Positions 18,291-35,792 of a DNA stretch of 46,574 nucleotides are shown piece by piece. The notes under the pieces are model-generated. The model had not been told where the DNA came from, ran no database searches, and saw nothing but the letters and a program-made list of their open reading frames with translations. Position 1 is the stretch's first letter. Each line of letters opens with the position of its first letter. The DNA is taken from contig CAYPQR010000001.1 in the NCBI GenBank assembly GCA_964412865.1, forward strand, positions 1 through 46,574. The letters run 5' to 3'. This DNA is from an uncultured Intrasporangiaceae bacterium (lineage in GTDB: Bacteria > Actinomycetota > Actinomycetes > Actinomycetales > Dermatophilaceae). The translations under genes were made by a program, and so were the position numbers.

Positions 18291-18680
18291 TCAACTGCCT
18301 CGGTGCGTGCTGATGCGCGGAGGTGTGCGCAGGGTGTTGGTGACCCAGCAGAGCCGCCGGGCCGGCTCGAGGAGGCGCTCGACGAGTTCAGGGTCCGCAT
18401 CCGCGCGAACGGCGATGTCGATCGCGCAGATGCGCGGCCCGTCGTAGTCGGCGGAGACGTCCACCGCAAGGCCGGGCAGTACGGCGTTCCGCTTGCCGGC
18501 AACGAACGCCATGGCGATGGTGAAGCACGATGCGACGGAGGCGAGCAACACCTCGGTGGGCAGCGGTGCGGGTGAACCGTCGGCGAGAGCCGCGTCGTGG
18601 CCGATGTCCCAGGACGATCGGCCGACGGCGACGGTGGCACTCTGGCCGCCGGTCCAGGTCGCCGAGACGTGCCGACTCAC
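18291..18680 (-). CDS. OsmC/Ohr-family protein
   Basis: P.PTEVLLASVASCF and ARRLCWVTNTL, with both conserved Cys; GTGA coupling to the DUF1116 stop. Confidence 0.85.
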   Translation of the reverse strand: MSRHVSATWTGGQSATVAVGRSSWDIGHDAALADGSPAPLPTEVLLASVASCFTIAMAFVAGKRNAVLPGLAVDVSADYDGPRICAIDIAVRADADPELVERLLEPARRLCWVTNTLRTPPRISTHRGS

Positions 18681-20101
18681 GTGTGTCCCCCCGGCGCCGG
18701 CCGGTCCTCCGCCGCCAGCGCAAGCACGGCGTCCCGGAAGCACGCGATGGGCGCGGTCGCCACCCCTGCGCCGATCTGACCGACACCCGAGTCGGCGTGC
18801 AGGATGCCGGTCGTGATTCGCGGCGGTAGGCCGAGTTCGACGACATAGCGGGCATCGACACCGAGCGGAGTTCCCTGGGAGTCCCACGTGGGCAGTGTGA
18901 AGCGGGTGGAGTGGGTCACGCAGGTCTGGGCCATGTCCTCGGTGACAACCCGCGCATCCGACATGTGACCTCCGAGAAATCCTGCAACAGCGGGAGATCC
19001 GGCCGCGGCCGCACCACCGAGGCCGACGAGTTCCAGCACGGCGCTGTCGCCGATGTCCGGCGCACTCGTGTCCGGTCCGTAGTCCGGGTAGTACATCGCG
19101 TCCAGGATGGGCGGGGCGTCGGCGAGGAAGAGACGGTCGTTGCCCGCGAGCCGCAGCCCGAACGTCGTGCCGTTGCGACACATCGTCGTCACCACACTGG
19201 ACCCTTCGACCCGTTCGGCCCACATCGTCAGCGACCTGGCCGCGGCCATCGCGAGGTTGAGGAAGAAGAGATGGTTGCCCGAGAGGAACCTCGCGAGCTC
19301 GACGCGTCCGGCGTCCGGGAGTGCGGCAAGGTGCGGCAGCAGGTTGCGGACCATGAGGTTCGTCGTGCCCTGGGTGCGCATGTGCACGTCGTCGCCCATC
19401 TGCACGCCTTGCGCGGCGAGCGCCATCACGTCGATCGGACCGGCGGCGCCGACCGCCTCGCGCAGCATCGGTCCAGCCACCTCCCGCAGGAACCGCAGTC
19501 GTGCGACCGCGCCGTCGGTGTCACGGCCGAACCAGGCCGTATCGCCGGGGCCCTGGTTGATCGGCGAGAACGCCCGGGTGCCCCCGGCCTCGTTGTCCAC
19601 GACGAAGACCGGTGTGGCCGGACCCATCGCCGTCGCCATCGGCACGACAACTCCGAAGTCACCGGCAGGGCGCAGCGCGATGGCGCCGTCCTCGATCAGC
19701 CGGCCGGCCTCGGCGACGTCGTCCGCCCATCCCTCGGCGACGGCGGCGGCACGCATCGAGCGACGCAGCGGATCGCACACCTCCGGCCACTCGATGGGCG
19801 GCCCGCAATGCAACAGCGTGCGCGGCGGCAGACCCTCGATGGCCTCCCCCGCCGGTGCGATGCCCACGAGTGTCGGCACGCCCTCGTCGAGACGACGCAC
19901 CACCTCGGCGTTCGCGCGGTCGATGTCCCCCGCCCGTGGACCGTGCAGACGCGTCAGAGCCGTCACCACCTGTGGGTCCCCGCCACCGGGGATCCGCCAG
20001 TCGAGTTGCTGCACCGGCCGGTCCTGTTGCGAGATCGCGTCGGCAAACAACGGTAGCCCGATGTTCACCACGGAGAGGGTTTCGGGAATGTCGATACTCA
20101 T
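18677..20101 (-). CDS. DUF1116 protein (YahG/YlbE/AllG-like carbamoyltransferase subunit)
   Basis: LLHCGPPI.W, QGVQMGDDVHMR, FFLNLAMAA, PDIGDSA..E..GLGG and ITTGILH...GQIGAG motifs. Confidence 0.9.
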   Translation of the reverse strand: MSIDIPETLSVVNIGLPLFADAISQQDRPVQQLDWRIPGGGDPQVVTALTRLHGPRAGDIDRANAEVVRRLDEGVPTLVGIAPAGEAIEGLPPRTLLHCGPPIEWPEVCDPLRRSMRAAAVAEGWADDVAEAGRLIEDGAIALRPAGDFGVVVPMATAMGPATPVFVVDNEAGGTRAFSPINQGPGDTAWFGRDTDGAVARLRFLREVAGPMLREAVGAAGPIDVMALAAQGVQMGDDVHMRTQGTTNLMVRNLLPHLAALPDAGRVELARFLSGNHLFFLNLAMAAARSLTMWAERVEGSSVVTTMCRNGTTFGLRLAGNDRLFLADAPPILDAMYYPDYGPDTSAPDIGDSAVLELVGLGGAAAAGSPAVAGFLGGHMSDARVVTEDMAQTCVTHSTRFTLPTWDSQGTPLGVDARYVVELGLPPRITTGILHADSGVGQIGAGVATAPIACFRDAVLALAAEDRPAPGGHT

Positions 20102-21609
20102 CGCTCCTCCTCGAATGTTCCGGCGACCGTGCGAGCCTCGGCGAGCAGCGCCGCAGTAGCCTCGCCCAGGTCGGCCCGCCGAGCCTCTGCACGGTTCGCG
20201 AGGTCCCGTGACATCTCCCGGCAGTGCTCGACCATCTCGGTGACCGCCGACGGGGCGGCCCCGCCGAGCGCGGCACGTGTCGTCACGATGTTCATCGGAT
20301 CAAGCACCTCGGTCAGGTCCAATCCGGCCAGGTTCCAGTCGCGTCCGGTGTCACGGCGTGCCGTGTCGTCGAGCATCCGCCCGGTGATGTCCTTCCCGGG
20401 GATCCCCCGCCGGCTCGCCTCTCTCACGGTGTTGCCGACGACGGTGTATGCAGTGCGGTAGTCGACTCCGCAGTGTTGGGTGATGTATTCGGTGAGGTCG
20501 GTCGCCTGCGTGTAGCCGGCATCCAGGCTCTCCCGCATACGTTCCGCGTTCACCGTCAGGGTCGCGACGACACCGGCCATGAGGCGTGTCACGCGGATCG
20601 AGAGGTCGAGGGCCCGTGGCACCTCGCCATACGCGAAGATCAGGTTGTCGCTGCGCGCCGACGGGCTCTTGGCGACGGCCAGGAATCCGCTCAGCCGGCC
20701 GATCAGGATGCCGGATGCGCCGCGCACGATCGATAGCGAATAGGGGTTGCGCTTCTGCGGCATGAGGATGCTGGAGCGGGTGTAGCCGTCGTCGAGGTCG
20801 ACGAAGTCGAATTCGCTGCTGGACCAGATCTCGAGGTCCTCGGCCAGCTTGCTCTGGGTGGAGGCGAGGCTCGCGGCCGTGGCCAGCACGTGGATCAGAC
20901 CGTCGACCTGCCACATGGCGTCTCGGGTGTGCTCGATGACCCCGGTGAAACCGAGGGCGCGGGCGATGTGGCTGCGGTCCGCGAGCAGGCGTGTGCCATT
21001 GACGCATCCGGCACCGCCGGGGCTGTGGTTGACCCAGTCGAAACCGCTCAGCAGCCGGTCACCGTCGCGCATGGCCGGATACGCGAAGTTCAAGATGTAG
21101 TGGCCGAAGGTCGACGGCTGAGCCTGTTGCAGGTAGGTCTGGTCGGGCATCAGGGTCGCCACGTGCGCAGCGGCCTGATCGGCGCATGCCGCCACGAACC
21201 TACTCGTGTGTCCCACGAGTTCCAGCAGCTGGTTGCGGACGAACAGCCGCAGCGCGATCCTCGCGGCCTCGCGCCGGGGGCGGCCTGCATGCAGCCAACC
21301 GGCCACATCCCCCAGGTGCGCGACGAAGTACCTCTCACGAGAGTTGTAGGGTTCGCCGAACTCGGGTTCGTAGGGGAACTCGTCAGCGCTCAGCCGATGC
21401 ACGTCGAGCAGCAGACCCAGGATCTGACGGGCGGCCTCTGCAGGAATGATCCGCCGACGCAGCAGATCGAGCACGTGCGCCATGTCGGCGAGGTTCAGAC
21501 CCTCGTGCAGGAATGGTGCGTCATCGTTCTCGAGCGCGAATCCGGAGTCGACGAGTTCGGGTGCAGGGCCGCTCGTCGGCGGACCGCTGCGGCGCGGCTT
21601 GCGGCTCAT
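20098..21609 (-). CDS. Argininosuccinate-lyase-like aspartase/fumarase-superfamily enzyme; candidate CoM-pathway (Xcb) lyase
   Basis: LHAGRPR, MPDQTYLQQAQP (His replaced by Tyr relative to ArgH), SSILMPQKRNP signature, ATDLTEY. Confidence 0.85.
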   Translation of the reverse strand: MSRKPRRSGPPTSGPAPELVDSGFALENDDAPFLHEGLNLADMAHVLDLLRRRIIPAEAARQILGLLLDVHRLSADEFPYEPEFGEPYNSRERYFVAHLGDVAGWLHAGRPRREAARIALRLFVRNQLLELVGHTSRFVAACADQAAAHVATLMPDQTYLQQAQPSTFGHYILNFAYPAMRDGDRLLSGFDWVNHSPGGAGCVNGTRLLADRSHIARALGFTGVIEHTRDAMWQVDGLIHVLATAASLASTQSKLAEDLEIWSSSEFDFVDLDDGYTRSSILMPQKRNPYSLSIVRGASGILIGRLSGFLAVAKSPSARSDNLIFAYGEVPRALDLSIRVTRLMAGVVATLTVNAERMRESLDAGYTQATDLTEYITQHCGVDYRTAYTVVGNTVREASRRGIPGKDITGRMLDDTARRDTGRDWNLAGLDLTEVLDPMNIVTTRAALGGAAPSAVTEMVEHCREMSRDLANRAEARRADLGEATAALLAEARTVAGTFEEER

Positions 21610-21611
21610 CG

Positions 21612-22562
21612 TCACTCCTCGAGGCCTTCCAGGGCGGACGCGATGCCACCCGTGCACCAGAACACGTAGGGGCCCGGGTCGCTCGCGACGAGCGCACGCA
21701 GCACGGTCATCGCCTTCGCACCGTATGTGTCGTCCAACAGCAACCCGCCCGCGTGGAATGCGACGCGCGCGCTCTCGCGATCCGCGGCGCCGGCGATGCC
21801 GAATCCCGGGCCGACCGCGTCACGCACCTCGGCGAGGTCGGGCTCCGGTCCACCGAGCACACTTGCGCACTCATGGGCGAGTCTCCCCACGCGGGAACGG
21901 ATTTCGTCCGCGGGTCTGCTCACCGACGCGCCGACGATCCGCATCGAGAGCCCGAACCGTGAGCAGCCCGCCAGCAGGCCTGCTTGGCTGCCACCCGAGC
22001 CGGTGGGTAGCACCACCGTGCCCGTGGCGATGCCGGCTTGTGCGCACTGCTTTCCCAACTCCTCCGCCGCCAGGGCGAACCCGACGCAGCCCACCGCAGT
22101 CGCCCCGCCTCGCGGCACGGCATAGGGTCGCCGCCCGGCGGCTCGCAGTCGGGCGGCATGCGCGGCGACGAGGCCGTCCAAGTCGCCGCGGGTCGCGCCG
22201 GGCTCGAAGTGCAGCCTCGCACCCGCTGCCAACGACAGTCTCATGGCCGTGGGCGGGTCATCGGGTGCCTCGCCACTGTGCACGATCTCGCACGCGAGAC
22301 CCGCCAGGCGTGCCGCGATCGCCGCAGCCGCGCAGAAGTTCGAGTGTGGCGAGCCCGCGGCGACGAGCACGGTGGCGCGGCGGGCGAGGGCGTCGCCGAG
22401 CAGGTATTCCAGCGACCTCGCCTTGTTGCCGGCCACTGCGAGCCCGGTGAGGTCATCGCGCTTCAGCCAGATCGGTCCGCCGCCGAAGGCGCGTTCCAGC
22501 CCGTGAGCACGATGCAGGGGCGTCGGAGTCACGGCCAGCGGAAAGCGTTCTGGGAGCATCAT
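21612..22562 (-). CDS. PLP-dependent D-cysteine desulfhydrase / ACC deaminase homolog (XcbE-like)
   Basis: PTPLH, WLKRDDLTG..AGNKAR.LEYL (PLP Lys), SNFC, GSGGSQAGL and LDDTYGAKA motifs. Confidence 0.9.
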   Translation of the reverse strand: MMLPERFPLAVTPTPLHRAHGLERAFGGGPIWLKRDDLTGLAVAGNKARSLEYLLGDALARRATVLVAAGSPHSNFCAAAAIAARLAGLACEIVHSGEAPDDPPTAMRLSLAAGARLHFEPGATRGDLDGLVAAHAARLRAAGRRPYAVPRGGATAVGCVGFALAAEELGKQCAQAGIATGTVVLPTGSGGSQAGLLAGCSRFGLSMRIVGASVSRPADEIRSRVGRLAHECASVLGGPEPDLAEVRDAVGPGFGIAGAADRESARVAFHAGGLLLDDTYGAKAMTVLRALVASDPGPYVFWCTGGIASALEGLEE

Positions 22563-23920
22563 GGGCACCACCGTTCCGGCTCGACCGCACGCGCCGCTCC
22601 GGCCGCCGCGACGACGCGGTCGACCATCTCGGGCGCGACGCCGGCCGGGGGCCCGCCGACCCACGCGTCGGCTTCGGACTCGGTGGCGATTCCGGACTCG
22701 ACCACCTGTGCGGCGAGGTCGCCGCCCTCGTCGGAGGCCGAGAGGTCCTGCAGCATCCGCTGCGCCCGATGCTTGCCCTCACGCGCCGCGAGACCGGCGA
22801 GCAGCCGCTCGGACGTGATCTGCGCACGCATACGCTCGACACCCGCAGCCATCGCCTCGACATCCACGCGGAGGCCCTTGGCAAGACGCAACGCGGTGCG
22901 CAGGGAGACCGCGGTCAGCTCGCACACCTCCGGCAGCGCGATCCACTCGGCCTTCCACGCGCGCCCATCTCGCTCGTGCGCACCCGCCATACCCTCGACG
23001 AGCACTGCGGCGCTGGCACGGGCCAGCCGCGCCAGGGTGTCAAGGTGCTCGCTGGCCTCCGGATTGTGCTTGTGCGGCATGGTGATCGAACCGACGGCGT
23101 CCGGGTCCATCGGCTCGTGCAGCTCTCCGATCTCGGGGCGGCAGAGTTCGTAGACCTCGTCTCCGAACCGAGCGAGCGTGCTGCAGACCATCGCGAGGAC
23201 GGTGCCGAACTCGGCGATCCGGTCGCGGGCCGTGAGCCATGAGATGTCCGGTTCACCGAGGCCGAGTTCGATGCAGAATTCGTGACGCAACCTGAGGGCG
23301 TCCGCGCCGAAGAAGCCGAGGGTCCCGACGGCGCCGCCGAGCTGGCCGACCAGCAGACGCCGGCGAGCCTCACGGAGCCGCTGCACGTGACGGCGCACCT
23401 CGTCCGCCCAGCCGGCCGCCTTGAATCCGAAGGTGATCGGCGCTCCGGGCTGACCGTGCGTGCGACCCAGCATGACCGTGTCGCGGTGCCGCTGCGCGAG
23501 CTGCAGGAAGGCCTCCTCGAGGGCCCTCAGGTCTCGCCAGACGATCGAACCGACGTCGCGAATGACGAGGGCGAACCAGGTGTCCGTCAGATCCTGGACC
23601 GTGGTGCCGTAATACACGTATTCACGGGCCGGTTCGGGCAGCTGCCGCTGCAGTGCGTGGATGAGTCCGAGCGTCGAGTGCGAGGTCGACCGGGTCTGCT
23701 CGGCAATCAGATCGAGATCCAGGCTCGAGGCATCCATCCGCGCGCAGATCGTCTCTGCGGCGTCCGACGGGATGATGCCGACCCGCGCCTGTGCTCTCGC
23801 GAGCGCAGCAAGGATTGCGACCCAACTCGCCAGACGGGCTCGCTCACCGAGGATGCCCTCGAGCTCGGGTGTCCCCCAAAGATGGCCGTATTGGCGCGAG
23901 TCGCTCAGACGGGTTCCCAT
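22559..23920 (-). CDS. Adenylosuccinate-lyase-like aspartase/fumarase-superfamily enzyme (XcbD-like)
   Basis: YYGTTVQDLTDT, GRTHGQPG.PITFG, GGAVGT, GSITMPHKHNP and HERDG motifs. Confidence 0.88.
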   Translation of the reverse strand: MGTRLSDSRQYGHLWGTPELEGILGERARLASWVAILAALARAQARVGIIPSDAAETICARMDASSLDLDLIAEQTRSTSHSTLGLIHALQRQLPEPAREYVYYGTTVQDLTDTWFALVIRDVGSIVWRDLRALEEAFLQLAQRHRDTVMLGRTHGQPGAPITFGFKAAGWADEVRRHVQRLREARRRLLVGQLGGAVGTLGFFGADALRLRHEFCIELGLGEPDISWLTARDRIAEFGTVLAMVCSTLARFGDEVYELCRPEIGELHEPMDPDAVGSITMPHKHNPEASEHLDTLARLARASAAVLVEGMAGAHERDGRAWKAEWIALPEVCELTAVSLRTALRLAKGLRVDVEAMAAGVERMRAQITSERLLAGLAAREGKHRAQRMLQDLSASDEGGDLAAQVVESGIATESEADAWVGGPPAGVAPEMVDRVVAAAGAARAVEPERWCP

Positions 23921-24831
23921 GTCGGCTCCCAAGTGTCAGCGAGTGCGCGCAGGGCCTGCTCGACCTGGCCGAGAGACGCGCCCCAGGGGACGGTGACCTG
24001 TCCGCCGTCCACCCGGATCTCGTGCTCGAGCTGGTCGCACTTCGTCAGCAGCGCGCCGTCCACCGGTGCGCGATGTCCGGGGCACATGTCGATGAAGGAG
24101 GCGGCGCGATGGCCATAGAACGATTCGTGGATCTGCTGCGAGCGCTCTGGTCCGATGAGCGTCCAGCGGTGCTCGGCCGGATGCTCGTCGAGATAGAACA
24201 CCTCCGCCCCCGGCATCGCGAGACCACTGCCCCGGCAAGGCACGAGATAGCAGTCTGCAGGCCGAGCCGCCGCGAGGCCGGCCAGATCGACGACGTCCGG
24301 AACCAACTCGATCGGCGGGAGCTCCTCGGCGACGGTCAGCACCCTGCGAGCCTGATCGAGTAGCTTCGGCGGCTCGGGAGGCGTGACTTCGCGCACGGTG
24401 ACCCTCAACGGCCGAGGGTTGATGATGAAGCTGACATGCTCATAGAGCCCTTGGACGACCACGGCCGGGCGCTCGGTCCGTGCTCCCGCCGCTGCCGCCG
24501 CGAGCGCTGACGGGATGGCCGTGTCGGTCTGTGGACTGTGCAGGTACGTGCAGTCGTCCGGCGCGGCGATCACCTGGACCCGGGTTATCGGTGCGAAAAG
24601 CGCATCGGGGTCATCGCGCCACACTCGGGCGATCGCTGTCAGGCCCTCGTTGCGCGCGACGACGAAACGAGTCCGCCGATATGCGGGGATGCCGAGCAGG
24701 TGTGAGGAGAGCGACCCCGGGTCGAGCGGGATATCGAGGCGGGAGACCGCGACTCCGCGGTATCTGCCCGGGACGACATTGTGGCCAGGCATCCCGGTGA
24801 GTGGCTGTGCGTCCGTCAGATCGGCAGCCAT
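23905..24831 (-). CDS. Hypothetical protein (308 aa) with several Cys motifs, inside the comA operon
   Basis: Overlaps both neighbours by 16 nt. Contains YLVPCRGSG, DMCPGH and LTKCDQLE; no family recognised. Confidence 0.82.
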   Translation of the reverse strand: MAADLTDAQPLTGMPGHNVVPGRYRGVAVSRLDIPLDPGSLSSHLLGIPAYRRTRFVVARNEGLTAIARVWRDDPDALFAPITRVQVIAAPDDCTYLHSPQTDTAIPSALAAAAAGARTERPAVVVQGLYEHVSFIINPRPLRVTVREVTPPEPPKLLDQARRVLTVAEELPPIELVPDVVDLAGLAAARPADCYLVPCRGSGLAMPGAEVFYLDEHPAEHRWTLIGPERSQQIHESFYGHRAASFIDMCPGHRAPVDGALLTKCDQLEHEIRVDGGQVTVPWGASLGQVEQALRALADTWEPTWEPV

Positions 24832-25589
24832 TGTCGACTCAGTCCGAAGGTGTCGGCGCGCAGTCCGAGGCGCAGCGTCTCGAGCGCGATCGCCTGTGTT
24901 GCGGCCACGTTGGCGAGGTTGACGCTCGGGCCGAACTCATGGATGAACCACGCTTGTTGATCCTTGCGGGGCGCCTCGAAGAAGATGGTCTCCACTCCCC
25001 CGGCGCGGGTGATGGCAGCGACGATGTCGGGGCGCACCGTCCCGTCCTCTTGGTATACGCCGACGGAACCGCTCTCGCGGCCTTCGGCGATGACCCACCG
25101 GGCACCGGCATCCCGGTCGCCGGCGATCTCCTCCGTCCACTGATGGGCGGACAGCTCCTCATGGGAGTCCTTGCGCCCGACCTCGGAGAACACGGCGAAT
25201 GAGCGTGCGGCCTGCCGGATCAGCGCATGCTTCTCGGACACTTCCATGGCGGCGACACCGCGTGACACCTCGACCGAGACGAACCCGGCGTCGCGGGCCC
25301 ATGCGAGGCAGTCCGCTGCCTTACCCTGTGCCCATGCGACCTCGAGCATGGTGCCTCCGAGGCAGGTTCGGATGTCGTGCGCCGCGAGAAGCGCCAGTTT
25401 GGCCCGAAGTGTCGGGTCGACATAGGCGGTGCCCCAACCGCACTTCCACACGTCCAGATATCCGGAGGCGGCGTCGAGGATTCCCGTCATCGTCTGCAGA
25501 TCGATCCCGTTGTCCAGCACATGCGTCATCCCGGTGGATCTGGGTTTGCTGGAGCGGGGCGGCAGATCCAGGAAGCTTGGCAGCGACAT
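24816..25589 (-). CDS. comA: Phosphosulfolactate synthase (CoM biosynthesis protein A)
   Basis: LPPR..KPR.TG.THVLD.G, YLDVWKCGWGT, GGTMLE, VEVS.G, SEVGRK, VIAEGRESG, FEAP.K.QQ, GP.VNLAN and LETLRLGLRADT motifs. Confidence 0.95.
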   Translation of the reverse strand: MSLPSFLDLPPRSSKPRSTGMTHVLDNGIDLQTMTGILDAASGYLDVWKCGWGTAYVDPTLRAKLALLAAHDIRTCLGGTMLEVAWAQGKAADCLAWARDAGFVSVEVSRGVAAMEVSEKHALIRQAARSFAVFSEVGRKDSHEELSAHQWTEEIAGDRDAGARWVIAEGRESGSVGVYQEDGTVRPDIVAAITRAGGVETIFFEAPRKDQQAWFIHEFGPSVNLANVAATQAIALETLRLGLRADTFGLSRQWLPI

Positions 25590-25610
25590 ATGACTTATGA
25601 TAAACGTCTC
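25590..25610. promoter_or_regulatory. Overlapping divergent -10 elements (leaderless comA operon and AIR-synthase-like gene)
   Basis: Minus strand TATCAT, 7 nt, then the comA ATG; plus strand TATGAT at 25596-25601. AT-rich patch in a 61-nt intergenic gap. Confidence 0.55.
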
Positions 25611-25650
25611 GTCCACTTTCCGACAGCAACACGCGCAGATGGGAGCGACC

Positions 25651-26625
25651 ATGGCAGCACCCCATGGCGTGGATGACGTCACCTCGCTGGCCGTTGTTCT
25701 CCGCAACAATCCGTCGCTGACGGCCAAGCGGGAAATCGCGCTGGTCGGTGACGTGCTCGGCCGTGGTGACTGGATCACCGGCCCGGGCGATGACGGAGCA
25801 GTCATCACGACCGATCCTCCGCAGGCGCAGGACATCATCGCGTGCGGAGAGGCGCTGCTGCCCGCCTTCGTCCAGGCCGACCCGTATGGTGCGGGACTCG
25901 CCGCCGTGCTGACCAATGTCAATGATCTGGCCGCCATGGGAGCAATCCCCGTCGGCATCGTCGACACCGTCGTCGCCGGCGAGTCCGTCGCCCGCGAGGT
26001 GCTCGAGGGCTTGCGCGCGGGGAGCGAGATGTATGAGGTGCCCCTCGTGGGCGGACATCTGACGATGCATGACGGTGCGCCGGCGTTGTCCGCGTTCGGC
26101 ATCGGGCGCGCGCCGCGCCCGCTCTCGTCGACCGCTGCCGCCCCCGGACAGACATTGTTGCTGGCGTGTTGCACGGAGGGGACGATGCGGGGGGACTTTC
26201 CCTTCTTCGCGTCGTTCGACCAGCGCGGCGAGCACCTCGCCGAGGATGTGCGCACCCTCGCCGCGGTGGCCGAGACCGGGTCGTGTGTGGCGGCGAAGGA
26301 CGTCAGCATGGCAGGTGTGATCGGCTCGCTCGCCATGCTCCTGGAGCACCGCGGGCTCGGTGTCACCGTCGACCTGGACGTCCTGCCGCGGCCCGCCGAC
26401 GTGCCACTCGAATGGTGGCTGACCTGCTTCCCCGCCTTCGCCTTCCTGCTGTGCGCACCTGCGGACCGGGCCGAGGAGTGCGCCGCCGCGTTCACCGGGC
26501 GCGGGCTGCGGGCGGCCGCCATCGGACGACTCGACGACAGCGGCGTGCTCGCGATCCGAGCCGGACGCGAGACCGCCGCCGTCCTCGATCTGCGAGTCGA
26601 CACGGTGACCGGCCTTCCGCGCTGA
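25651..26625 (+). CDS. AIR-synthase-related protein (Sll0787 / NitF / MSMEG_0567 C-terminal family)
   Basis: GDDGAV, TNVNDLAAMG, PLVGGH, AAKDVSMAG..GSL.MLLE and WLTCFP motifs. Confidence 0.88.
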   Translation: MAAPHGVDDVTSLAVVLRNNPSLTAKREIALVGDVLGRGDWITGPGDDGAVITTDPPQAQDIIACGEALLPAFVQADPYGAGLAAVLTNVNDLAAMGAIPVGIVDTVVAGESVAREVLEGLRAGSEMYEVPLVGGHLTMHDGAPALSAFGIGRAPRPLSSTAAAPGQTLLLACCTEGTMRGDFPFFASFDQRGEHLAEDVRTLAAVAETGSCVAAKDVSMAGVIGSLAMLLEHRGLGVTVDLDVLPRPADVPLEWWLTCFPAFAFLLCAPADRAEECAAAFTGRGLRAAAIGRLDDSGVLAIRAGRETAAVLDLRVDTVTGLPR

Positions 26626-26635
26626 GCACGCCCGC

Positions 26636-27193
26636 TCAGTGGCGGATCCCCGCCGACAGTTCCCGCACGGCTCGCGAGCCGTCCTCCGGCGCCGGCAGGT
26701 CGATCGACATGCGCTGGTGCGCCAGACCGACATACATCTCGGGATCCCCGTCGGCCAGCCACCCCAGATGCGTGAAGAACCTGACGTTGGGCAATTGGAT
26801 GTGCGCCACCATGCGATCGCCGCCGTGGGCACCGGCGGTGGCGACGGCGCAGCGCACCAGCGGGGCTCCGACCCCGTGCACCCGGAACGGCGGCAGGACA
26901 CAGAGTCTGTCGCCCTGCCAGAGCCCGTGCTCGTCGCCGAGCGGGAAAAGCCGCACGGCGCCGGCGGGCATTCCGTCGTAGCAGCCGAGCAGATGGATCG
27001 TGTGCGCGTCGTCGTCGTGCGGGTCACGATCCGAACCGGTGAAGACGGCCTGCTCCCCCACGAACACCTCCTGCCTGATCCGGTGATGCACCGCGAGGTC
27101 TTCCGACGAGTCGGCGGGGCAACAGGTGATGAGACCGCCGGACCGGATCGAGGCAACGTCCGCGCTGCCCGGTGACAGTGTCACGTCGCTCAC
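26636..27193 (-). CDS. GNAT N-acetyltransferase (Sll0786 / NitE / MSMEG_0567 N-terminal family)
   Basis: IRQEVFVGEQ.VF.GSDRD..D, GAVRL, LVRCAV.TA and AHIQ..NVRFF..LGW motifs; GTGA-coupled to the radical SAM gene. Confidence 0.88.
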   Translation of the reverse strand: MSDVTLSPGSADVASIRSGGLITCCPADSSEDLAVHHRIRQEVFVGEQAVFTGSDRDPHDDDAHTIHLLGCYDGMPAGAVRLFPLGDEHGLWQGDRLCVLPPFRVHGVGAPLVRCAVATAGAHGGDRMVAHIQLPNVRFFTHLGWLADGDPEMYVGLAHQRMSIDLPAPEDGSRAVRELSAGIRH

Positions 27194-28347
27194 GCGCCGT
27201 CGGCCGTCGTGAGTGGCTCGAATGCGCGCATCCCCGAGCAGGCTTGGCAGCGCGCACAACCCGCCTTCGCAACCGTCGAATACATACCACGCCGAGCCAT
27301 GTATGACACGACGTCACGATTGATCCTGGTCGTGTATGCCGTGTCGGGCGGCGACACGTCGGCCATCAGGCTGCCGGCGACCGGCCGTAGCGGCACCACG
27401 AAGGGATACACCCCGATGTCGATGGCACGACGACACCCGTCGATGGTGACGTCGGGATCCTCGCCCATGCCGAGGATGACGTAGGTCGTCACCTGCCCCT
27501 TGCCGAAGATCTCGACCGCCCGCTCCCAGGTCTCGAAATATCGCTCGATGCCGGTGCGATACTTTCCGGGCGCGACATGCTCCAGCACTCGCGGGTCGAA
27601 CGTCTCGACATGAATGCCGAGGGTGTCGATGCCCAGGTCATGGATCTCTTCGAGCACCTCGAGGTCGCGCGGCGGCTCGAACTGCACCTCGACGGGCAGA
27701 CCGGTCGCCTCCTTCACGGCATGCCCGCACCGGGCGACGTAGCGCGCTCCACGGTCGGGTGCCTTGGAGCTTCCGGTGGTCAGCGTGACGTCGACGGCGC
27801 CGTCGAGATCCCTTGCCGCGAGGGCGACTTCGGCCAACTGTTCGGGCGTCTTCTTCACGATCGTCCGACCGGCCTGCAGTGAGAGCTCGATCCCGCAGAA
27901 CTTGCACTGGTCTTCCGTGCCCCAGTAGGTGCACGTCTGCACCACGGTGCTCGCGAACGAATCGAGGTGCAGCAGCCCGATCTTCCAATACGGGATCCCG
28001 TCATCGGTCTGCAGGTCGTAGAACCGTGGTCGTTCCTGGCCGTGGGCGTCCGCGAGACGGACACCATCGCGGTAGATCCCGTAGCCGTCGTCCTCCGCCT
28101 TCAGCACGAACGGGGAGTCCGCGGCCGTCGCGTTGTCGGTCGGCACGGTGAGCGAATAGCCGCCCACCCACAATTGACCGGAGTCCGACGGTCCCGCGCC
28201 GCCACGGCGGCCCTCGATCGGCGACTCGACCCGCAGACCGTGGGCCTGCAGGTCGACCAGTAACTCTGCGAGTGCACTCTGTGCGCGCCGGTCCTCATCG
28301 GTGGATGTCGTCCGAGGAGCAGGGCCACCAGCCATCTGAATACTCAT
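27190..28347 (-). CDS. Radical SAM protein, MSMEG_0568 / NitD family
   Basis: GRRGGAGPSD, PRFYDLQT.DGIPYWKI, STVVQTC-x8-C-x2-C, YPFVVPLRP and C-terminal AGCARCQACS. Confidence 0.93.
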   Translation of the reverse strand: MSIQMAGGPAPRTTSTDEDRRAQSALAELLVDLQAHGLRVESPIEGRRGGAGPSDSGQLWVGGYSLTVPTDNATAADSPFVLKAEDDGYGIYRDGVRLADAHGQERPRFYDLQTDDGIPYWKIGLLHLDSFASTVVQTCTYWGTEDQCKFCGIELSLQAGRTIVKKTPEQLAEVALAARDLDGAVDVTLTTGSSKAPDRGARYVARCGHAVKEATGLPVEVQFEPPRDLEVLEEIHDLGIDTLGIHVETFDPRVLEHVAPGKYRTGIERYFETWERAVEIFGKGQVTTYVILGMGEDPDVTIDGCRRAIDIGVYPFVVPLRPVAGSLMADVSPPDTAYTTRINRDVVSYMARRGMYSTVAKAGCARCQACSGMRAFEPLTTADGA

Positions 28348-28580: not shown

Positions 28581-28589
28581 TTGGGCAAC

Positions 28590-29573
28590 GTGTCGAAGCT
28601 GGCCGTCGTGGCGCTCGGAGGCAACGCCTTCACGGTCGAGAACGAGGCCGGCCGCTATGAGGATCAGGCCCGGCACGCCGCCGCCATGGCCACGCTGATC
28701 GGCGACATGCTGGCCGACGGCTGGGGTCTCGCGCTGGTGCACGGCAACGGTCCCCAGGTCGGCAACCTGGCCATCCAACAGGAGGACGGTGCCGCGCTCG
28801 TGCCTCCACAACCGCTGTTTTCATTGGTCGCCATGACCCAGGGCGAACTGGGCAGCCTCATCGCGCTCGCCGTGCGCAACGCCACGGGGCGGACCGACGT
28901 CACGGGCGTGGTGACGCATGTCGTGGTCGACCCCGAGGACCAGGCATTCAGCGACCCCTCCAAACCGATCGGCCCGTTCCTGCGGGAGCAGGATGCGAAG
29001 CGACTGGCCCAGGAGCGCGGATGGAAGATCCGCGAGGACTCCGGTCGCGGCTGGCGGCGCATCGTCGCCTCGCCGCGGCCGGTGCGCATCGTCGAGGTCG
29101 ACGCGATACGGCAGCTGCTGCACTCGGGCCAGGTGGTGGTGACCGGTGGGGGCGGCGGCATTCCCGTCGTCCGTGGGGGCAGCGGCCGCCTCGAATGCAC
29201 CGATGCCGTCATCGACAAGGATTACGTCGCCTCGGAGCTGGCCGCCGCGGTCGACGCCCGCGCACTGGTGATGGTCACCGCGGTCGACTCCGTGCATCTC
29301 GACTTCGGCACGCCGGACCAGCGGCCCATCGCCCAGATGGACGTCGAGGAGGCGGAGCGGCACCTGGCGGAGGGCCAGTTCCCGGAGGGCAGCATGGGCC
29401 CGAAGATCCGCGCGGCCAGCTACTTCCTGCGCCACGGGGGTGATCTGGCCGTCATCACGACCGCAGCCCGCGCAGCCCGCGGATTGCGCTGCGCCGACCC
29501 GGACGACACGTCTGCCGGCACTCGTCTGGTGCGCCACCGGGCGGATGCCCCGTCACGAGGGAGGACGTCGTGA
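28590..29573 (+). CDS. arcC: Carbamate kinase (ArcC/YahI/AllK-like)
   Basis: VVALGGNA, HGNGPQVG, PSKPIGPF, WRRIVASP.P, GGGGIPV, AVIDKD and GSMGPKI motifs. Confidence 0.95.
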   Translation: MSKLAVVALGGNAFTVENEAGRYEDQARHAAAMATLIGDMLADGWGLALVHGNGPQVGNLAIQQEDGAALVPPQPLFSLVAMTQGELGSLIALAVRNATGRTDVTGVVTHVVVDPEDQAFSDPSKPIGPFLREQDAKRLAQERGWKIREDSGRGWRRIVASPRPVRIVEVDAIRQLLHSGQVVVTGGGGGIPVVRGGSGRLECTDAVIDKDYVASELAAAVDARALVMVTAVDSVHLDFGTPDQRPIAQMDVEEAERHLAEGQFPEGSMGPKIRAASYFLRHGGDLAVITTAARAARGLRCADPDDTSAGTRLVRHRADAPSRGRTS

Positions 29574-31108
29574 CCGAGGCCATCAGGCTGTTCTCGGACA
29601 CCTACGTGGACTCCGTGGTCGCCCTGCGAGGCATGCGAGCGATGCGCGAAACGGCGGGCGTGCGATGGGCGACGGCCGTCGCCGCGACGCCCGCGAATCT
29701 GGCCGCCCTGCGCGAGGACGGCATCGCCGACGACCGGCTCGAGAACGCGACCGCGAACGACTTCTGCCTCGCCGTGCGCGCCGACGACGGCGACGCCGCG
29801 GACAACGCCCTGGAGGCCGGGCGACAGGCGGTCTTCGCGGCACGCCCGCAAGAGGCCGACGCCACGCGGCGAGCACCTCGAACGGTCCGGGACGCAGTCG
29901 CCGCGGCACCGGATGCCAACGTCGCGATCGTTTCGGTGCCCGGCGACTACGCGGCGCTGGCGGCCTACCAGGCGCTGGACGCCGGGATGCATGTGCTGCT
30001 GTTCAGCGACAACGTGCCGCTCGCCGACGAGGTCGCGCTGAAGACGTATGCGCGAGCCCGTGGCCTGCTCGTCATGGGCCCGGGTGCCGGCACGGCGATG
30101 CTCGCCGGCACCGGTCTGGGCTTCGCCAACAGCGTCCGCAAGGGCCCGGTCGGCGTCGTGGCCGCCGCCGGCACCGGGGCCCAGGAGGCCATGACACTGC
30201 TCCATCGCTGGGGCCTCGGCGTCAGCCAGGTGATCGGCGTCGGCGGACGCGACCTGAGCACGGACGTCGACGGGCGCATGGCCCGATCCGGAGTCGAATA
30301 CCTGCGCGACGATCCCGACACCGATGTGATCCTGCTGGTCTCCAAGCCCCCGGCTCGGGAGGTCGCCCAGAAGGTGATCGAGGCTGCGGGCGAGACACCC
30401 ATGGTGGCGGCCCTCATCGGACTCGACGAACACGGTCTCACCGCACCCGAAACGGTGACGCTTACCGGCACCCTGGAGTCCGGGGTGGCGGCGACGCTGA
30501 GGACCCTCGGACGGACACCGCCCGACACGACGCTCCTGGCCGGACCCTCACTCGCCGACGCATCGGCGAGGATCGGCCCGGGACGCAAGACCGTCCGCGG
30601 GCTCTTCTCCGGAGGCACCCTCTGCTACGAGTCGCTGGTCATTCTGAGTCGACGGCTCGGGGAAGTCCGTTCGAACACCCCCATCAACCCCGACTGGGGG
30701 CTACCCGCACCACCCGGCAGTCACCAGTGCCTCGATCTGGGCGAAGAGGAATACACCCGCGGGCGGCCGCATCCGATGATCGACCCGGAGGCGCGGATCG
30801 AGGTGCTGCGCGAGCACGCGGCCGACGACGATGTCGCCGCGATCATCCTCGACGTCGTGCTGGGATACGGCTCCAACGCCGATCCTGCCGGTGCACTCGC
30901 CCCCGTCTGCGCCGACATCATGTCGAGCGGCGGACCACAGATCGTGACCTACGTCCTCGGCACCGATCGCGACCCACAGCGACGTCGCGCGCAACGTGAC
31001 ACACTCGTGGATGCCGGCTGTATCGTCACCGAAACGGCGGCACGCGCATCGCTTGCCGCGGCGGCCCTTGCGACCGGTGACCTGTCGTTGATCGAGAGTT
31101 CGCTATGA
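29570..31108 (+). CDS. FdrA/YahF-family protein (acyl-CoA-synthetase-like; AllF-like subunit)
   Basis: YVDSV, SVPGDYA, LFSDNV, LVMGPG.GT, IGVGGRDLS, GLFSGGTL, DLG..EYTRGRPHPMIDP and LDVVLGYG motifs. Confidence 0.93.
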   Translation: MTEAIRLFSDTYVDSVVALRGMRAMRETAGVRWATAVAATPANLAALREDGIADDRLENATANDFCLAVRADDGDAADNALEAGRQAVFAARPQEADATRRAPRTVRDAVAAAPDANVAIVSVPGDYAALAAYQALDAGMHVLLFSDNVPLADEVALKTYARARGLLVMGPGAGTAMLAGTGLGFANSVRKGPVGVVAAAGTGAQEAMTLLHRWGLGVSQVIGVGGRDLSTDVDGRMARSGVEYLRDDPDTDVILLVSKPPAREVAQKVIEAAGETPMVAALIGLDEHGLTAPETVTLTGTLESGVAATLRTLGRTPPDTTLLAGPSLADASARIGPGRKTVRGLFSGGTLCYESLVILSRRLGEVRSNTPINPDWGLPAPPGSHQCLDLGEEEYTRGRPHPMIDPEARIEVLREHAADDDVAAIILDVVLGYGSNADPAGALAPVCADIMSSGGPQIVTYVLGTDRDPQRRRAQRDTLVDAGCIVTETAARASLAAAALATGDLSLIESSL

Positions 31109-32280
31109 ACATGCCGCGCGTCGCCCTGGTCAGCTACTCCACCCGCCCGCGCGGCGGCATGGTGCACACCCTCTCGCTCGCCGACGCGCTCGTCGCACGA
31201 GAGGCACCCGTGCGGGTCGTCGCGCTCGACCGGCAACCGAGTATCGGCTTCTTCCGCCCAGTTTCGGCACCGTCGACGCTCATCCCCGGGCCGACACCGT
31301 TACCGACGCTGGAGGAACGCGTCTTCGCGTCCGTCGACGCGCTCGAGGACGGATTGCGCGACGTGGCCCGCGAAGTCGACATCCTGCACGCCCAGGACTG
31401 CATCTCCGCCCGCGCCGCGGCACGCGTGCGAGACGCCGGCGCCCCCGTCAAGGTCGTGCGCACCGTGCACCACGTCGACGACTTCACGACGCAGGCACTC
31501 GTCGACTGCCAGCGCCAGGCCATCCTCGAACCGGACGAGTTGATCGTCGTGAGCGATGACTGGCGACGCCGCCTGTCCGACGAGTACGGCGTCCGGGCGA
31601 CAGTCATCCACAACGGAGTCGATGTGGAGCGCTTCGGCCCGATCGCACCGAAGGCACGCGATCGCCTGCGGGAACAGGCCGGCGTCTCGAAACGCTTCGT
31701 GTTCCTCGCCGTGGGCGGCATCGAGCCGCGCAAGGGCACGATCGGGCTCTTCCGAGCTCTGGCGAAGGTGCACGAGCATCCTTTGCAGCCCGTGCTCGTC
31801 ATCATCGGCGGCCATTCGTTCCAGGACTACACCGCATACCGCGACAGGGCCTTGGAGCTGCTGGATGAACTGGGGCTCACCCTCGGAGTCGACGTGATCC
31901 AGGCCGGCACGGTGAGTGACGAAACCCTGCACCAGTGGTACCGGTCCGCAGACGCGCTGGCCTTTCCCTCTCTCAAGGAAGGCTGGGGACTCGCCGTGCT
32001 CGAGGCGCTCAGCGCCGAGCTGCCGGCGGTCACCAGCGACATCCCGGTGCTGCACGAATACCTCACAGACGGAGTCGACGCCGTGCTGACCGAGGCAGAC
32101 GACCCCGGCGACCTGGCTCGCGGTATGCGTGCCGTCATGGACGACCCGCGGTTGCGCTCACAGCTCGCGAGAGGCGGGACGGCCCTCGCGCGGCGCTTCA
32201 CCTGGTCGCGAACCGCCGCGGAGCACGAGCGGCTGTATCAAGCGGTGGTCGGCACCCCGCACAGCCGCGCAAACGCCTGA
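31105..32280 (+). CDS. GT4 glycosyltransferase, MSMEG_0565 family
   Basis: YSTRPRGGMVHTL.LADAL, HAQDCIS, RTVHHVDDF...LVDCQ..AI, GGIEPRK and FPSLKEGWGL motifs. Confidence 0.93.
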   Translation: MNMPRVALVSYSTRPRGGMVHTLSLADALVAREAPVRVVALDRQPSIGFFRPVSAPSTLIPGPTPLPTLEERVFASVDALEDGLRDVAREVDILHAQDCISARAAARVRDAGAPVKVVRTVHHVDDFTTQALVDCQRQAILEPDELIVVSDDWRRRLSDEYGVRATVIHNGVDVERFGPIAPKARDRLREQAGVSKRFVFLAVGGIEPRKGTIGLFRALAKVHEHPLQPVLVIIGGHSFQDYTAYRDRALELLDELGLTLGVDVIQAGTVSDETLHQWYRSADALAFPSLKEGWGLAVLEALSAELPAVTSDIPVLHEYLTDGVDAVLTEADDPGDLARGMRAVMDDPRLRSQLARGGTALARRFTWSRTAAEHERLYQAVVGTPHSRANA

Positions 32281-32303: not shown

Positions 32304-33638
32304 ATGGCAAGACGAATCGTGATCATCGGAGGTAGCGCCGCCGGGATGGGAGCCGCCGGTGCCGCCCAACAGGTGGACCCCGACGCGCACATCATCGTCT
32401 ACACGGAACTCGCGGACGTCGCCTACAGCCCGTGCGGCATCCCCTACGTGCACGGCAAGGAGATCGACTCGTTCGACCGCCTGATCCTGCAGGGGAAGCA
32501 GTTCTATGCGGACCGCGGATTCGAGATCCACTACGAGACCGTCGTGAGCGCGATCGACACCAAGAAGCGCACGATCGAGGTGCCCGGCCAGGGATCGGTC
32601 TCCTACGACCAGCTGGTGATCGCCACCGGATTCAAGTACGAGCAGCCGAACGTGCCCGGCGCCGACCTCGGCAACCTCTACTATGTGCGCGACATCCGCA
32701 ACGCGCAGAAGTGGGACGTCATCCTCGACTCGGTCCACCAGGCGGTGATCGCCGAGGCCCAGCCGATCGGCGTCGAGATGGCAACCGCACTCGCGCATCG
32801 CGGCATCGAGACGCACCTGGTCGACCCGCATCCCTGGCCGATGGCGGAGATCACCGACCCGGACATCATGGAACCGGTCGAGGAATCGTGGCAGGAACTG
32901 GGTGTGCACCTGCACCTGAACACCACCATCGACGCATTCCTCGGCACCGAACGGGTGCAGGCGGTCCGCACGTCGGACGGCGAAATCCCTGTCGACATGG
33001 TCGTCGTCGGCACCAAGAAGCTGCCGAACAACGATCTGGCGGCCGCGGCGGGCGTCAAACGCGGGTCGACCGGCGGGCTGATCGTCGACGAGCACATGCG
33101 CACGTCGGTGCCCGGAGTCTTCGCCGCGGGAGACTGCGTCGAGGTGCCGCAGGGCACGACCGGCGTGCCCGTGCAGGGATTGTCCGGAAGCCACGCATAT
33201 GCGCAGGGGAAGATCGCCGGCAGCGGTGCCGCCGGCACGCTGCGCAGCTATGCACCCGTGCACGTGCCATGGGGTCTGGTCGCCGGCAAGTGGATGATCG
33301 GCGGGGTCTCGTTCGGTGAGACGCTCGCCGGGGCGCTGGGCATTCCCTACGTCAAGGGCGTCGCCGAGGGAATCTCACGAGCGCGCTACTACCCGGGCTT
33401 CAAGAAAATCCGGGTCAAGCTGCTGGCAGAGCCCGGCACACTCAAGCTGATCGGTGCTCAGCTCGTCGGCGGCGAAGGGGTCAAGGAGCGTTGCGACTTC
33501 CTCGCCATGGCAGCGCGCAAGGGCCTGACACTGCACGATATCGCGTGGATGGAGAACGTCTATTCACCTGCCATGGGTGCTCTTTCGGAGCCCATGGCAC
33601 TTGCGGCACAGAACGGACTGGCGGCGGTGGCGTCATGA
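32304..33638 (+). CDS. FAD-dependent CoA-disulfide reductase / NADH oxidase-like flavoprotein
   Basis: IIGGSAAG FAD motif, YSPCGIPY single redox Cys, LVIATG, VFAAGD, SRARYYPG and YSP motifs. The NAD(P)H-binding motif is degenerate. Confidence 0.88.
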   Translation: MARRIVIIGGSAAGMGAAGAAQQVDPDAHIIVYTELADVAYSPCGIPYVHGKEIDSFDRLILQGKQFYADRGFEIHYETVVSAIDTKKRTIEVPGQGSVSYDQLVIATGFKYEQPNVPGADLGNLYYVRDIRNAQKWDVILDSVHQAVIAEAQPIGVEMATALAHRGIETHLVDPHPWPMAEITDPDIMEPVEESWQELGVHLHLNTTIDAFLGTERVQAVRTSDGEIPVDMVVVGTKKLPNNDLAAAAGVKRGSTGGLIVDEHMRTSVPGVFAAGDCVEVPQGTTGVPVQGLSGSHAYAQGKIAGSGAAGTLRSYAPVHVPWGLVAGKWMIGGVSFGETLAGALGIPYVKGVAEGISRARYYPGFKKIRVKLLAEPGTLKLIGAQLVGGEGVKERCDFLAMAARKGLTLHDIAWMENVYSPAMGALSEPMALAAQNGLAAVAS

Positions 33639-33880
33639 ACCGGCTCTTCTGGTGGGTGCGCACCAATTCGCAGAAGTACCTCCTGGAAGCCACCCAGGCG
33701 GACCTCGCACGTCAGCATGGCCGCACGGGCCCCGTGGGCCGCAAGACCCCCGAAGTGGTCTTCTGGAAATACGTGTTCGTGCCGCTGTACCGCCGCCTGC
33801 CGTGGCAGGTGAAGCACCGGGTGATCACGGCCATGCCGGGCAGCCACAGGAAGGACTGGTCCTCGTCCCGGGAATCCTGA
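33635..33880 (+). CDS. Small hypothetical protein (81 aa, basic, Trp-rich)
   Basis: ATGA overlap with the reductase stop; followed by a strong terminator. Confidence 0.72.
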   Translation: MNRLFWWVRTNSQKYLLEATQADLARQHGRTGPVGRKTPEVVFWKYVFVPLYRRLPWQVKHRVITAMPGSHRKDWSSSRES

Positions 33881-33943: not shown

Positions 33944-34429
33944 TTACATCGTCCAGGTGTTCAGAGTCAGTGCGTGCTCCTTCCACGCGGTGATCGCAGC
34001 ATCCAGCACGTCCTTCGGGTTGATCGGCTTGACGCCCTCCATCATGTCGATCTCACGCATGCCGTAGAGCGCGGCGGCCGAGAACCTGCATGCGTATGCG
34101 TGCCCGCCCTCATCCATGAACCGCCGCAGCAGATTGTTGTAGTTCATGTTGCCCGGGAACCCTTCGTCACCGACCTTCGGGAATCCGCGGGTCGCGGCCG
34201 CGGCGAGTGACCCCGGCCCGAACATGACGAAGTGTGTCTCGAACCCCTTCCGCAGGATTCGGGTGGCGGTCAGCAAGTTGACCAGAGAGGCAGAACTCTC
34301 GAACGGCACGCAGTGGTAGAAGACGAAGGCCTTCTGCCCGGGTTCCGCTTGATGATCAGGAAAGACCTTGTCCTCGTAATCGACGATGGCGTCTCCTGCG
34401 CTCACCCGTTCACCGACGAAATCCACCAT
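33944..34429 (-). CDS. MSMEG_0572 / Sll0783 / NitB family DsrE-like nitrogen-starvation protein
   Basis: GD..VDYEDKVFPD..A.PG.KA, LVNLL.A.R..RKGFE, RGFPKVG.EGFPG and YACRF..AALYG motifs; RBS AAGGAG. Confidence 0.92.
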   Translation of the reverse strand: MVDFVGERVSAGDAIVDYEDKVFPDHQAEPGQKAFVFYHCVPFESSASLVNLLTATRILRKGFETHFVMFGPGSLAAAATRGFPKVGDEGFPGNMNYNNLLRRFMDEGGHAYACRFSAAALYGMREIDMMEGVKPINPKDVLDAAITAWKEHALTLNTWTM

Positions 34430-35330: not shown

Positions 35331-35425
35331 GAAACGTATCGGATAGTAGAGGTCGCGTCTTCCTTGCCATACACGACACCCACGTCTTGTATCACCGGAA
35401 CTCCTAGCATCGTCAGCTATAGTTG

Positions 35426-35782: not shown

Positions 35783-35792
35783 GGGGGCACCA

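Follow-up and report, generated by a model that had tools for sequence, protein, structure and literature searches.

A bacterial xcb-type operon, the gene set for coenzyme M (CoM, 2-mercaptoethanesulfonate) biosynthesis, was found in an undescribed, common context other than alkene metabolism, and it is real and complete. The operon lies on a 46,574-nt stretch of DNA (hereafter the window) from an uncultured Intrasporangiaceae bacterium; the window is contig C1 (CAYPQR010000001.1) of the source assembly G000 (GCA_964412865.1; 4.0 Mb, 955 contigs, 68% GC, 72% complete). Sequence comparison assigns the five genes to the bacterial xcb set, and their operon probably makes CoM. The surrounding cluster of about 19 kb (18291-37411) combines genes of the Nit1C type with those of an AllFGH carbamoyltransferase. 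If CoM is made, its use here is very probably not alkene metabolism.

All five xcb open reading frames (ORFs) are intact, start with ATG and are located on the minus strand in the order xcbB-A-D-E-C. In the following, NCBIfam results refer to the best model per protein and are given as score/curated cut-off in bits. The genes are xcbB/comA, phosphosulfolactate synthase (24816..25589, 257 aa; TIGR03849 233/280; PF02679 259 bits, cut-off 25; 48% identical to XcbB of Nocardioides JS614); xcbA (DUF7714), of the [2Fe-2S] thioaldehyde reductase family (23905..24831, 308 aa; NF052538 318/150); xcbD, an adenylosuccinate-lyase-like 3-sulfopropionylcysteine synthase (22559..23920, 453 aa; NF052536 578/600); xcbE, a pyridoxal phosphate (PLP) D-cysteine-desulfhydrase-like enzyme (21612..22562, 316 aa; NF052537 237/450); and xcbC, an argininosuccinate-lyase-like phosphosulfolactate phosphate-lyase (20098..21609, 503 aa; NF052535 436/575). 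The gaps along this series are -16, -16, -4 and +2 nt, so the five overlapping or near-abutting genes described in the initial annotation were confirmed. Its operon span was correct for these genes and too short at the lower bound, as the chain of overlaps continues into allG (18677..20101, minus strand; YlbE/DUF1116 carbamoyltransferase subunit, PF06545 218 bits; -4 nt) and an OsmC-family two-cysteine protein gene (18291..18680, minus strand; PF02566, both Cys conserved; -4 nt), giving a seven-gene operon. One gene listed there as unknown is present and can now be named as xcbA, and the membership of the operon in the larger cluster had been overlooked. The order B-A-D-E-C is the same on the plasmids of JS614 and Mycolicibacterium NBB4 and was seen again in dozens of loci, which excludes chance clustering. 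Leekyejoonella antrihumi C5-26 (L005) was the closest named relative found, with 78% identical XcbA and identical gene order.

The Xcb models were the best match for all four proteins other than ComA, and XcbA alone passed its cut-off. The proteins of the ethene oxidisers JS614 and NBB4 are also under the cut-offs for XcbC (332 and 396) and XcbE (313 and 328), and JS614 XcbD passes. Identities of the window proteins were 34-43% to Xanthobacter autotrophicus Py2 and 41-52% to JS614, and reciprocal tblastn with Py2 and JS614 queries returned window XcbA, XcbB, XcbC and XcbD as best matches (4/5). The Xcb model exceeded argH for XcbC (436 vs 283 bits) and purB for XcbD (578 vs 256). XcbC has TYLQxAQP where ArgH has THMQHAQP, and XcbD shares HSTLG and HERDGRxWK with Py2 and JS614 XcbD, motifs that are absent from the PurB and PcaB of G000 itself; these motifs settle the identity of the two lyases. 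True ArgH or PurB was rejected for them on motifs, scores and the presence of separate housekeeping copies (ArgH on C114, PurB-like on C123, PcaB-like on C235). XcbC narrowly passes the argH model (282.6 vs a cut-off of 279.5), and automatic annotation would therefore mislabel it. The motifs of window XcbB are common to alkene-type XcbB.

In phylogenetic trees, window XcbC was placed among Xcb proteins and away from the ArgH of G000, and XcbE grouped with Py2 and JS614 XcbE apart from three paralogues (support 0.94). The XcbD tree was unclean, a long-branched PcaB-like outgroup joining Py2 XcbD (support 0.70). The initial annotation had assigned the family set to the xcb route and proposed BLAST and phylogeny as a check; the assignment held by best HMM (hidden Markov model), reciprocal tblastn except for XcbE, trees and motifs, with the lyases separate from ArgH/PurB and XcbE joining the Xcb proteins in the tree and not by Py2 BLAST. 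Of the five proteins, XcbE has diverged most; it keeps the PLP lysine and has LLLDDxYG in place of LDPV(F/Y). In XcbA, Cys199, Cys250, Cys265, His132 and His235 are invariant, and Cys228 and Cys266 are replaced. For the structural model of XcbA (predicted local distance difference test, pLDDT, 93), Foldseek gave no match at E<=0.001; the best Z, 7.1 over 83 residues, was within background. XcbC, XcbE and XcbA of the cluster context form clades or splits of their own. As to descent, the XcbC tree nests the Nit1C type inside alkene types and XcbB and XcbD suggest the reverse, all from quick or FastTree trees with long outgroups.

Neither an alkene monooxygenase nor epoxyalkane:CoM transferase (EaCoMT) nor 2-ketopropyl-CoM oxidoreductase/carboxylase (2-KPCC) was found in the window by HMM scan of 41 candidate ORFs or by tblastn searches using the Py2 and JS614 proteins, which bears out the earlier statement that alkene and epoxide genes are missing there. 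The genome-wide check for etnE/xecA and alkene monooxygenases proposed at that time was also run, and none were found in G000 at 72% completeness: EtnE/XecA queries returned MetE matches only (23-24%), no PF02332 match was obtained, EtnA and EtnC queries had no match, and 2-KPCC queries matched generic disulfide reductases only (23-31%). A second, distant comA in G000 is split over two contig ends (C90:7008-8902 and C232:1-254; L002, L003) and stands directly after an MmgE/PrpD-like gene, not beside alkene genes. The congener G002 (98% complete) has the same cluster, no EtnE orthologue (only a 27% MetE-type match) and one soluble di-iron monooxygenase only, which from its sequence we take to be of the propane/Prm type.

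XcbA above cut-off was found in 31 genomes (2/120 relatives, 8/400 phylum genomes and 21/400 class genomes), and 18 of the 31 have the Nit1C-type context of the window. In 17 of these 18, all at least 90% complete, EtnE/XecA queries gave no match that exceeded 30% over a long stretch, whereas 13/13 genomes with XcbA in other contexts carry a 47-84% match. Thresholds differed between searches, and the numbers are a tally and not a test, since related genomes are not independent. The 17 genomes back the earlier inference that CoM serves another role here. In the ambiguous genome, G804, an EtnE-like match of 37% adjoins a second comA and was placed outside the EtnE/XecA clade by a small tree. At that locus (L195:241-2372), the second comA directly precedes a methionine-synthase-II-family gene with 35-37% identity to EtnE, possibly another CoM transferase, and a larE-like gene. 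On the Methylocystis iwaonis plasmid, a broken xecA-like remnant (203664-204007; L134:13600-14000; 51-61% over short pieces) was observed 5 kb from the cluster with cydAB between. A third xcb layout, with xcbA-D-E and a convergent xcbC, occurs in G600, G614, G641, G653, G664 and G675 (L163-L167, L179), where neither comA nor etnE is adjacent and EtnE-like genes are located elsewhere in the genome.

Upstream of the operon, the nearest cluster gene encodes a sll0787/NitF AIR-synthase-like protein of the PurM fold (25651..26625, plus strand; TIGR04049 246/321, its best model; start inferred, longest ORF from 25597), for which ThiL and HypE were equally strong PDB matches (E about 2e-7). A NitE-type GNAT acetyltransferase (26636..27193, minus; TIGR04045 94.8/68.5) and a NitD-type radical SAM protein (27190..28347, minus; TIGR04043 390/304; Cx8Cx2C, C-terminal GCARCQAC; weak LipS2 match, 1e-10) follow, and then, on the plus strand, carbamate kinase (28581..29573; TIGR00746 319/358), the carbamoyltransferase subunit allF (FdrA; 29570..31108; NF004760 409/433) and an MSMEG_0565-family glycosyltransferase of family GT4 (31105..32280; TIGR04047 361/260). 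Beyond a flavoprotein and its neighbour (below) are the DsrE-like NitB/MSMEG_0572/Sll0783 protein (33944..34429, minus; TIGR04044 208/110; YACRF cysteine conserved), an Amidohydrolase_2 metal-dependent TIM barrel (34485..35312, minus; PF04909; metal-ligand His/Asp conserved; Atlas clusters unnamed), a small conserved orphan protein (35423..35782, plus; homologue in 14/21 clusters, no family match) and the subunit allH (YlbF/DUF2877; 36566..37411, plus; PF11392 97 bits). The models for NitB, NitD and NitE were thus above cut-off and that for NitF was best and under it. AllF, AllG and AllH families are all present with a carbamate kinase, and no allantoin pathway genes were detected among the 41 ORFs. 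The nitrilase NitC and the flavoprotein NitH are both missing from the window, and the NitH model TIGR04046 is unmatched across G000; two nitrilase homologues (36-37%) are on other contigs of G000. For the amidohydrolase, no PDB sequence match was found, and its poor single-sequence model (pLDDT 57.5) gave generic TIM-barrel matches only.

Twenty-one clusters, from 20 genomes and one plasmid and several of them cut by contig ends, were compared. All five xcb genes are together in 18, and in one of the three exceptions the contig stops within xcbD. The frequencies were 19 for allG and the radical SAM gene, 18 for allF, 17 for NitB, 17 for the flavoprotein with its small neighbour and 16 for osmC. 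The same gene set surrounds xcb on the plasmid of M. iwaonis, a member of another phylum, with cydAB directly beside the cluster. The hydrolase slot is filled by the amidohydrolase in 13, a Co-type nitrile hydratase in 2 and a Nit6803 nitrilase in 1 (five loci are cut short), never by two kinds in one cluster; this swapping of the hydrolase suggests a substrate with a C-N triple bond. Three copies with nitrile hydratase are flanked by genes that, from their sequence, we take to be larE-, larB- and larC-like (L006:2814-5563, L090:1-2100, L095:1883-4712); a CbtA-like cobalt transporter gene is present in L006 as well. Metagenomic loci, the best 80 of 481 by likeness to window XcbA and hence a biased set rather than a frequency, comprised 52 of Nit1C type, 6 of alkene type and 22 too short, with nitrile hydratase in 5 and the amidohydrolase in 2. 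NitH passes its cut-off in 5/5 canonical Nit1C genomes, 0/10 xcb-type genomes and 0/3 related genomes, so the thiol/carbamoyl module likely does the job of NitH in another way. Other Nit1C genes do not accompany a more distant MSMEG_0568-like radical SAM group (L145-L149; 267-312 bits), whose neighbour in the two loci viewed is an acyl-CoA-synthetase-like gene.

The flavoprotein (32304..33638, plus) resembles CoA-disulfide reductases (TIGR03385 252/579; PDB matches to these and to persulfide reductases). Cys44 is kept (SPCGIPY), and the NAD(P)H-binding GxGxxG is replaced (AEAQPIG); the motif is lost in 21/21 cluster flavoproteins and kept in 8/8 homologues from alkene clusters. A basic orphan protein of 81 aa without Pfam match (33635..33880, plus) is encoded after it in 27/27 loci and is its predicted partner subunit. 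The predicted complex reached an interface score (ipSAE) of 0.89 against 0.02 for the best control, above a mark met by 116/157 solved and 2/215 mismatched pairs, counts only roughly valid here; contacts agreed to at least 95% between runs, with partner pLDDT of at least 82. In the model, residues 35-52 of the partner are outside the interface in an amphipathic helix (moment 0.47 for helix 41-55), and this free helix would suit a membrane anchor.

A predicted promoter of the xcb operon, TGTCGG-N17-TATCAT with the motif AAAGTGGACG in its spacer, is located at 25597..25625 on the minus strand, 7 nt before the comA ATG, and is likely leaderless. It is conserved in 37/67 upstream regions and in 0/15 of alkene type. 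The pattern AWRGTRRAYR, picked after these same regions had been viewed, occurs upstream of xcbB in 38/58, carbamate kinase in 18/36, the flavoprotein gene in 10/22 and the radical SAM gene in 6/43 loci, with shuffle means of 0.07-0.27 for the first three and below 0.3 for all. It was found in 0/15 regions of alkene-type xcbB, in 0/167 before xcbD, xcbC, allG and GT4, and in none before nitB. In the window, the motif is matched exactly at 25619 and, with one deviation, at 28505. This shared motif suggests co-regulation of the xcb operon with cluster genes, and no regulon was called because G000 holds 114 single matches. An XRE-cupin regulator (35655..36482, plus; HTH_3 and Cupin_2; true start likely near 35800), present in 17/21 clusters, is the candidate for binding it. 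A generic promoter and terminator scan returned nothing.

Like the xcb genes of Py2 (xcbABCDE; PMC9457059), JS614 and NBB4, the window has all five Xcb families, and a CoA-disulfide-reductase-like gene is nearby in alkene and window contexts. It differs in that etnE/xecA, 2-KPCC and alkene monooxygenase were not found, the operon is extended by allG and osmC, a separate promoter motif is present, the proteins form separate clades and XcbA is without two cysteines. With Nit1C (nitBCDEFGH; Synechocystis sll0783-0787; Mycobacterium smegmatis gpr, MSMEG_0565-0572), it shares NitB, NitD, NitE, NitF and the MSMEG_0565 glycosyltransferase; in place of NitC and NitH the cluster has xcb, AllFGH, carbamate kinase, amidohydrolase, OsmC and the two-subunit flavoprotein. 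All three subunit families and the kinase of Escherichia coli oxamic transcarbamylase (AllFGH with AllK; PMC11326118) are in the window, but spread over three transcription units and without allantoin genes. The flavoprotein shares the fold family and single redox cysteine of CoA-disulfide and persulfide reductases (PDB 6ruz, 3cgb, 8a56) and differs from them in the lost GxGxxG and the conserved 81-aa predicted partner. A 2024 paper limits the known occurrence of CoM biosynthesis genes to methanogenic archaea and bacteria that use alkenes (PMC11507031). A search of the open-access literature returned no link of xcb genes to Nit1C or AllFGH; supplements, which were outside the search, could list such clusters.

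The reading we favour, tentatively and at somewhat less than even probability, is that CoM acts as a carrier of cyano and carbamoyl groups to carbamoyl phosphate, ATP and ammonia within a likely co-regulated Nit1C-type module, which would thereby scavenge nitrogen from cyanide or nitriles. By homology to Py2, where XcbB, XcbC, XcbD, XcbE and XcbA lead from phosphoenolpyruvate (PEP), sulfite and cysteine to CoM and the XcbA cluster ligands are unassigned (PMC9457059), PEP and sulfite would give phosphosulfolactate (XcbB), then sulfoacrylate (XcbC), a cysteine adduct (XcbD), a thioaldehyde (XcbE) and CoM (XcbA). Conversion between the thiol and disulfide forms of CoM would fall to the flavoprotein and its small partner, probably working with an acceptor in the membrane and not with NAD(P)H. 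CoM-S-CN would then arise from cyanide or from a cyano group passed on by NitB and the radical SAM/GNAT/PurM-fold core, and its hydration to S-carbamoyl-CoM could be the task of the amidohydrolase, or of the nitrile hydratase or nitrilase that other copies have instead. AllFGH would transfer the carbamoyl group to phosphate, and carbamate kinase would yield ATP, NH3 and CO2, with CoM released. The translational coupling of allG to xcbC and the presence of allG in 19/21 clusters support this carrier role, as do the shared promoter motif, the exchange of hydrolases between copies, the distribution of NitH, the predicted complex of flavoprotein and partner, and cydAB next to the M. iwaonis cluster. 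In Pseudomonas, nitA, nitB and nitC are required for growth on cyanide, and cyanide is a poor substrate of NitC (PMC5939895, PMC7815647); AllFGH, paired with carbamate kinase, interconverts oxalurate with oxamate and carbamoyl phosphate (PMC11326118). The carrier role fits the cyanide phenotype and the poor NitC activity, and it accounts for xcb, allFGH, the kinase, the hydrolase and the flavoprotein.

Several observations weigh against it. The radical SAM, GNAT, PurM-fold and GT4 proteins are not accounted for by the carrier route, and carbamate kinase and allH are present in 14/21 and 7/21 clusters (some loci are cut). The canonical Nit1C genome G424 has the amidohydrolase beside C-N hydrolases and NitH, and the amidohydrolase is therefore not a strict nitrilase stand-in; the cluster nitrile hydratase is an ordinary Co-type enzyme, matching nitrile hydratases at 1e-85 vs thiocyanate hydrolase at 1e-48. 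Three genomes of 97-99% completeness (G249, G483, G429) have the same module without xcb genes or an XcbA or XcbE homologue. The module can thus do without CoM synthesis by xcb, and another thiol, another route or uptake may serve there. In these genomes comA is elsewhere, and the stretch between carbamate kinase and allF encodes a PLP aminotransferase together with an SsuD-like monooxygenase that is fused to, or next to, a diaminopimelate-decarboxylase-like domain (G249, L135:3149-5410 and 11107-12471; G483, L137; G429, L139-L140). G497 (95% complete) has xcbA, xcbD and xcbC, and XcbE was not found. Two paralogues outscore window XcbE in tblastn from Py2 and one from JS614, its model score is 237 vs 313 and 328 for JS614 and NBB4, and window XcbA has Pro228 and Asp266 where 76/79 cluster-type and 13/13 alkene-type copies have Cys. 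The choice of the promoter pattern after viewing the regions counts here too, as does the failure to find a GlnR-like box, the pattern matching 2/220 upstream regions, which is no enrichment. Separately, a taurine/sulfonate ABC binding protein was observed about 6 kb from the xcb-less module of G483, and the Pro change of XcbA is common to 13/120 homologues (best 120 of 3156).

The most probable of the alternatives, though unlikely, is that CoM is a low-molecular-weight redox thiol with which OsmC removes peroxides, its disulfide being recycled by the flavoprotein and the Fe-S enzymes of the cluster being protected. The position of osmC inside the xcb operon and its presence in 16/21 clusters are consistent with this, as is the related flavoprotein adjoining xcb in alkene clusters; the M. 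smegmatis gpr operon confers peroxide resistance and a higher NADPH/NADP ratio (PMC6039565), and CoM overproduction protects Methanosarcina from H2O2 (PMC12713407). However, the coupling to allG, allF, carbamate kinase and nitrile hydratase is left unexplained, and a flavoprotein whose NAD(P)H motif is lost in 21/21 copies is a poor fit to a plain NADPH-driven reductase.

Less probable again is that CoM or an Xcb intermediate serves as building block or sulfur donor for a cofactor or protein modification that the radical SAM, GNAT, PurM-fold and GT4 proteins would make, with carbamoyl phosphate consumed. These four are biosynthetic enzyme types. PurM-fold HypE, among the PDB matches of the NitF-like protein, dehydrates an S-carbamoyl group to thiocyanate, a reaction in favour of such a role, but ThiL matches that protein equally. 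The C-terminal CxxC of the radical SAM protein resembles the auxiliary-cluster ligands of LipS2 (PMC9585515), and AllFGH has been assayed in the carbamoylating direction (PMC11326118). Yet the same four enzymes occur in canonical Nit1C genomes without ComA (G256 and G424, 0/2), and their product therefore needs no CoM.

Still more doubtful is a diverged Xcb set that stops before CoM or makes a different sulfonate or thiol, e.g. the cysteine adduct. The separate clades or splits of XcbC, XcbE and XcbA, the LLLDDxYG of XcbE, the two replaced cysteines of window XcbA and the genome G497 without XcbE point that way, but the five genes stay together in 18/21 clusters, the motifs of XcbB, XcbC and XcbD match alkene-type enzymes, and cysteine as reductant can bypass the XcbA cluster in vitro (PMC9457059). 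An epoxide pathway in the missing 28% of G000, with the neighbourhood incidental, is highly improbable given the 17/18 same-context genomes without an EtnE/XecA orthologue against 13/13 with one in other contexts, even with the 72% completeness and 955 contigs of G000, a G002 di-iron monooxygenase that could co-oxidise alkenes, the xecA-like remnant of M. iwaonis and the EtnE-like gene of G804.

Other genes of the window were also recorded. A GntR/FadR regulator (17294-18262) was left out of the cluster, having no match in any other locus, and a lone family-5 solute-binding protein by the operon end (15494-17227) is not conserved in other copies. An ordinary-looking uptake/catabolism cluster (5086-14992) contains a ROK kinase, CutC, a peptide ABC transporter, a ROK regulator and an M81/MlrC metallopeptidase. 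A large subtilase (38801-41533, 910 aa) was also observed, as was an ORF of 532 aa (42536-44134) that matched neither Pfam nor NCBIfam.

As 18/31 sampled Actinomycetota genomes with XcbA have the Nit1C-type context, xcb genes are an unsafe marker of alkene or vinyl-chloride degraders. The role of Nit1C is still called obscure in PMC7815647, and its linkage to xcb offers a concrete handle, in that CoM is measurable and commercially available, named cultured strains carry the cluster (L. antrihumi C5-26, L005; M. iwaonis SS37A-Re, L010) and the individual steps of the proposed route are open to assay on simple substrates. A wider and doubtful proposal, to which we give less weight than to the carrier role itself, is that soil Actinomycetota and some Alphaproteobacteria oxidise cyanide or nitrile carbon to carbamoyl phosphate, with CoM-thiocyanate and S-carbamoyl-CoM as intermediates and ATP and ammonia as the gain; the electrons would be handed on by a two-subunit CoM oxidoreductase anchored in the membrane. 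If true, such an undescribed CoM-dependent route would give a lead on what the Nit1C cluster does chemically, and it would add a third role to the physiology of CoM, one no rarer in bacteria than alkene metabolism.

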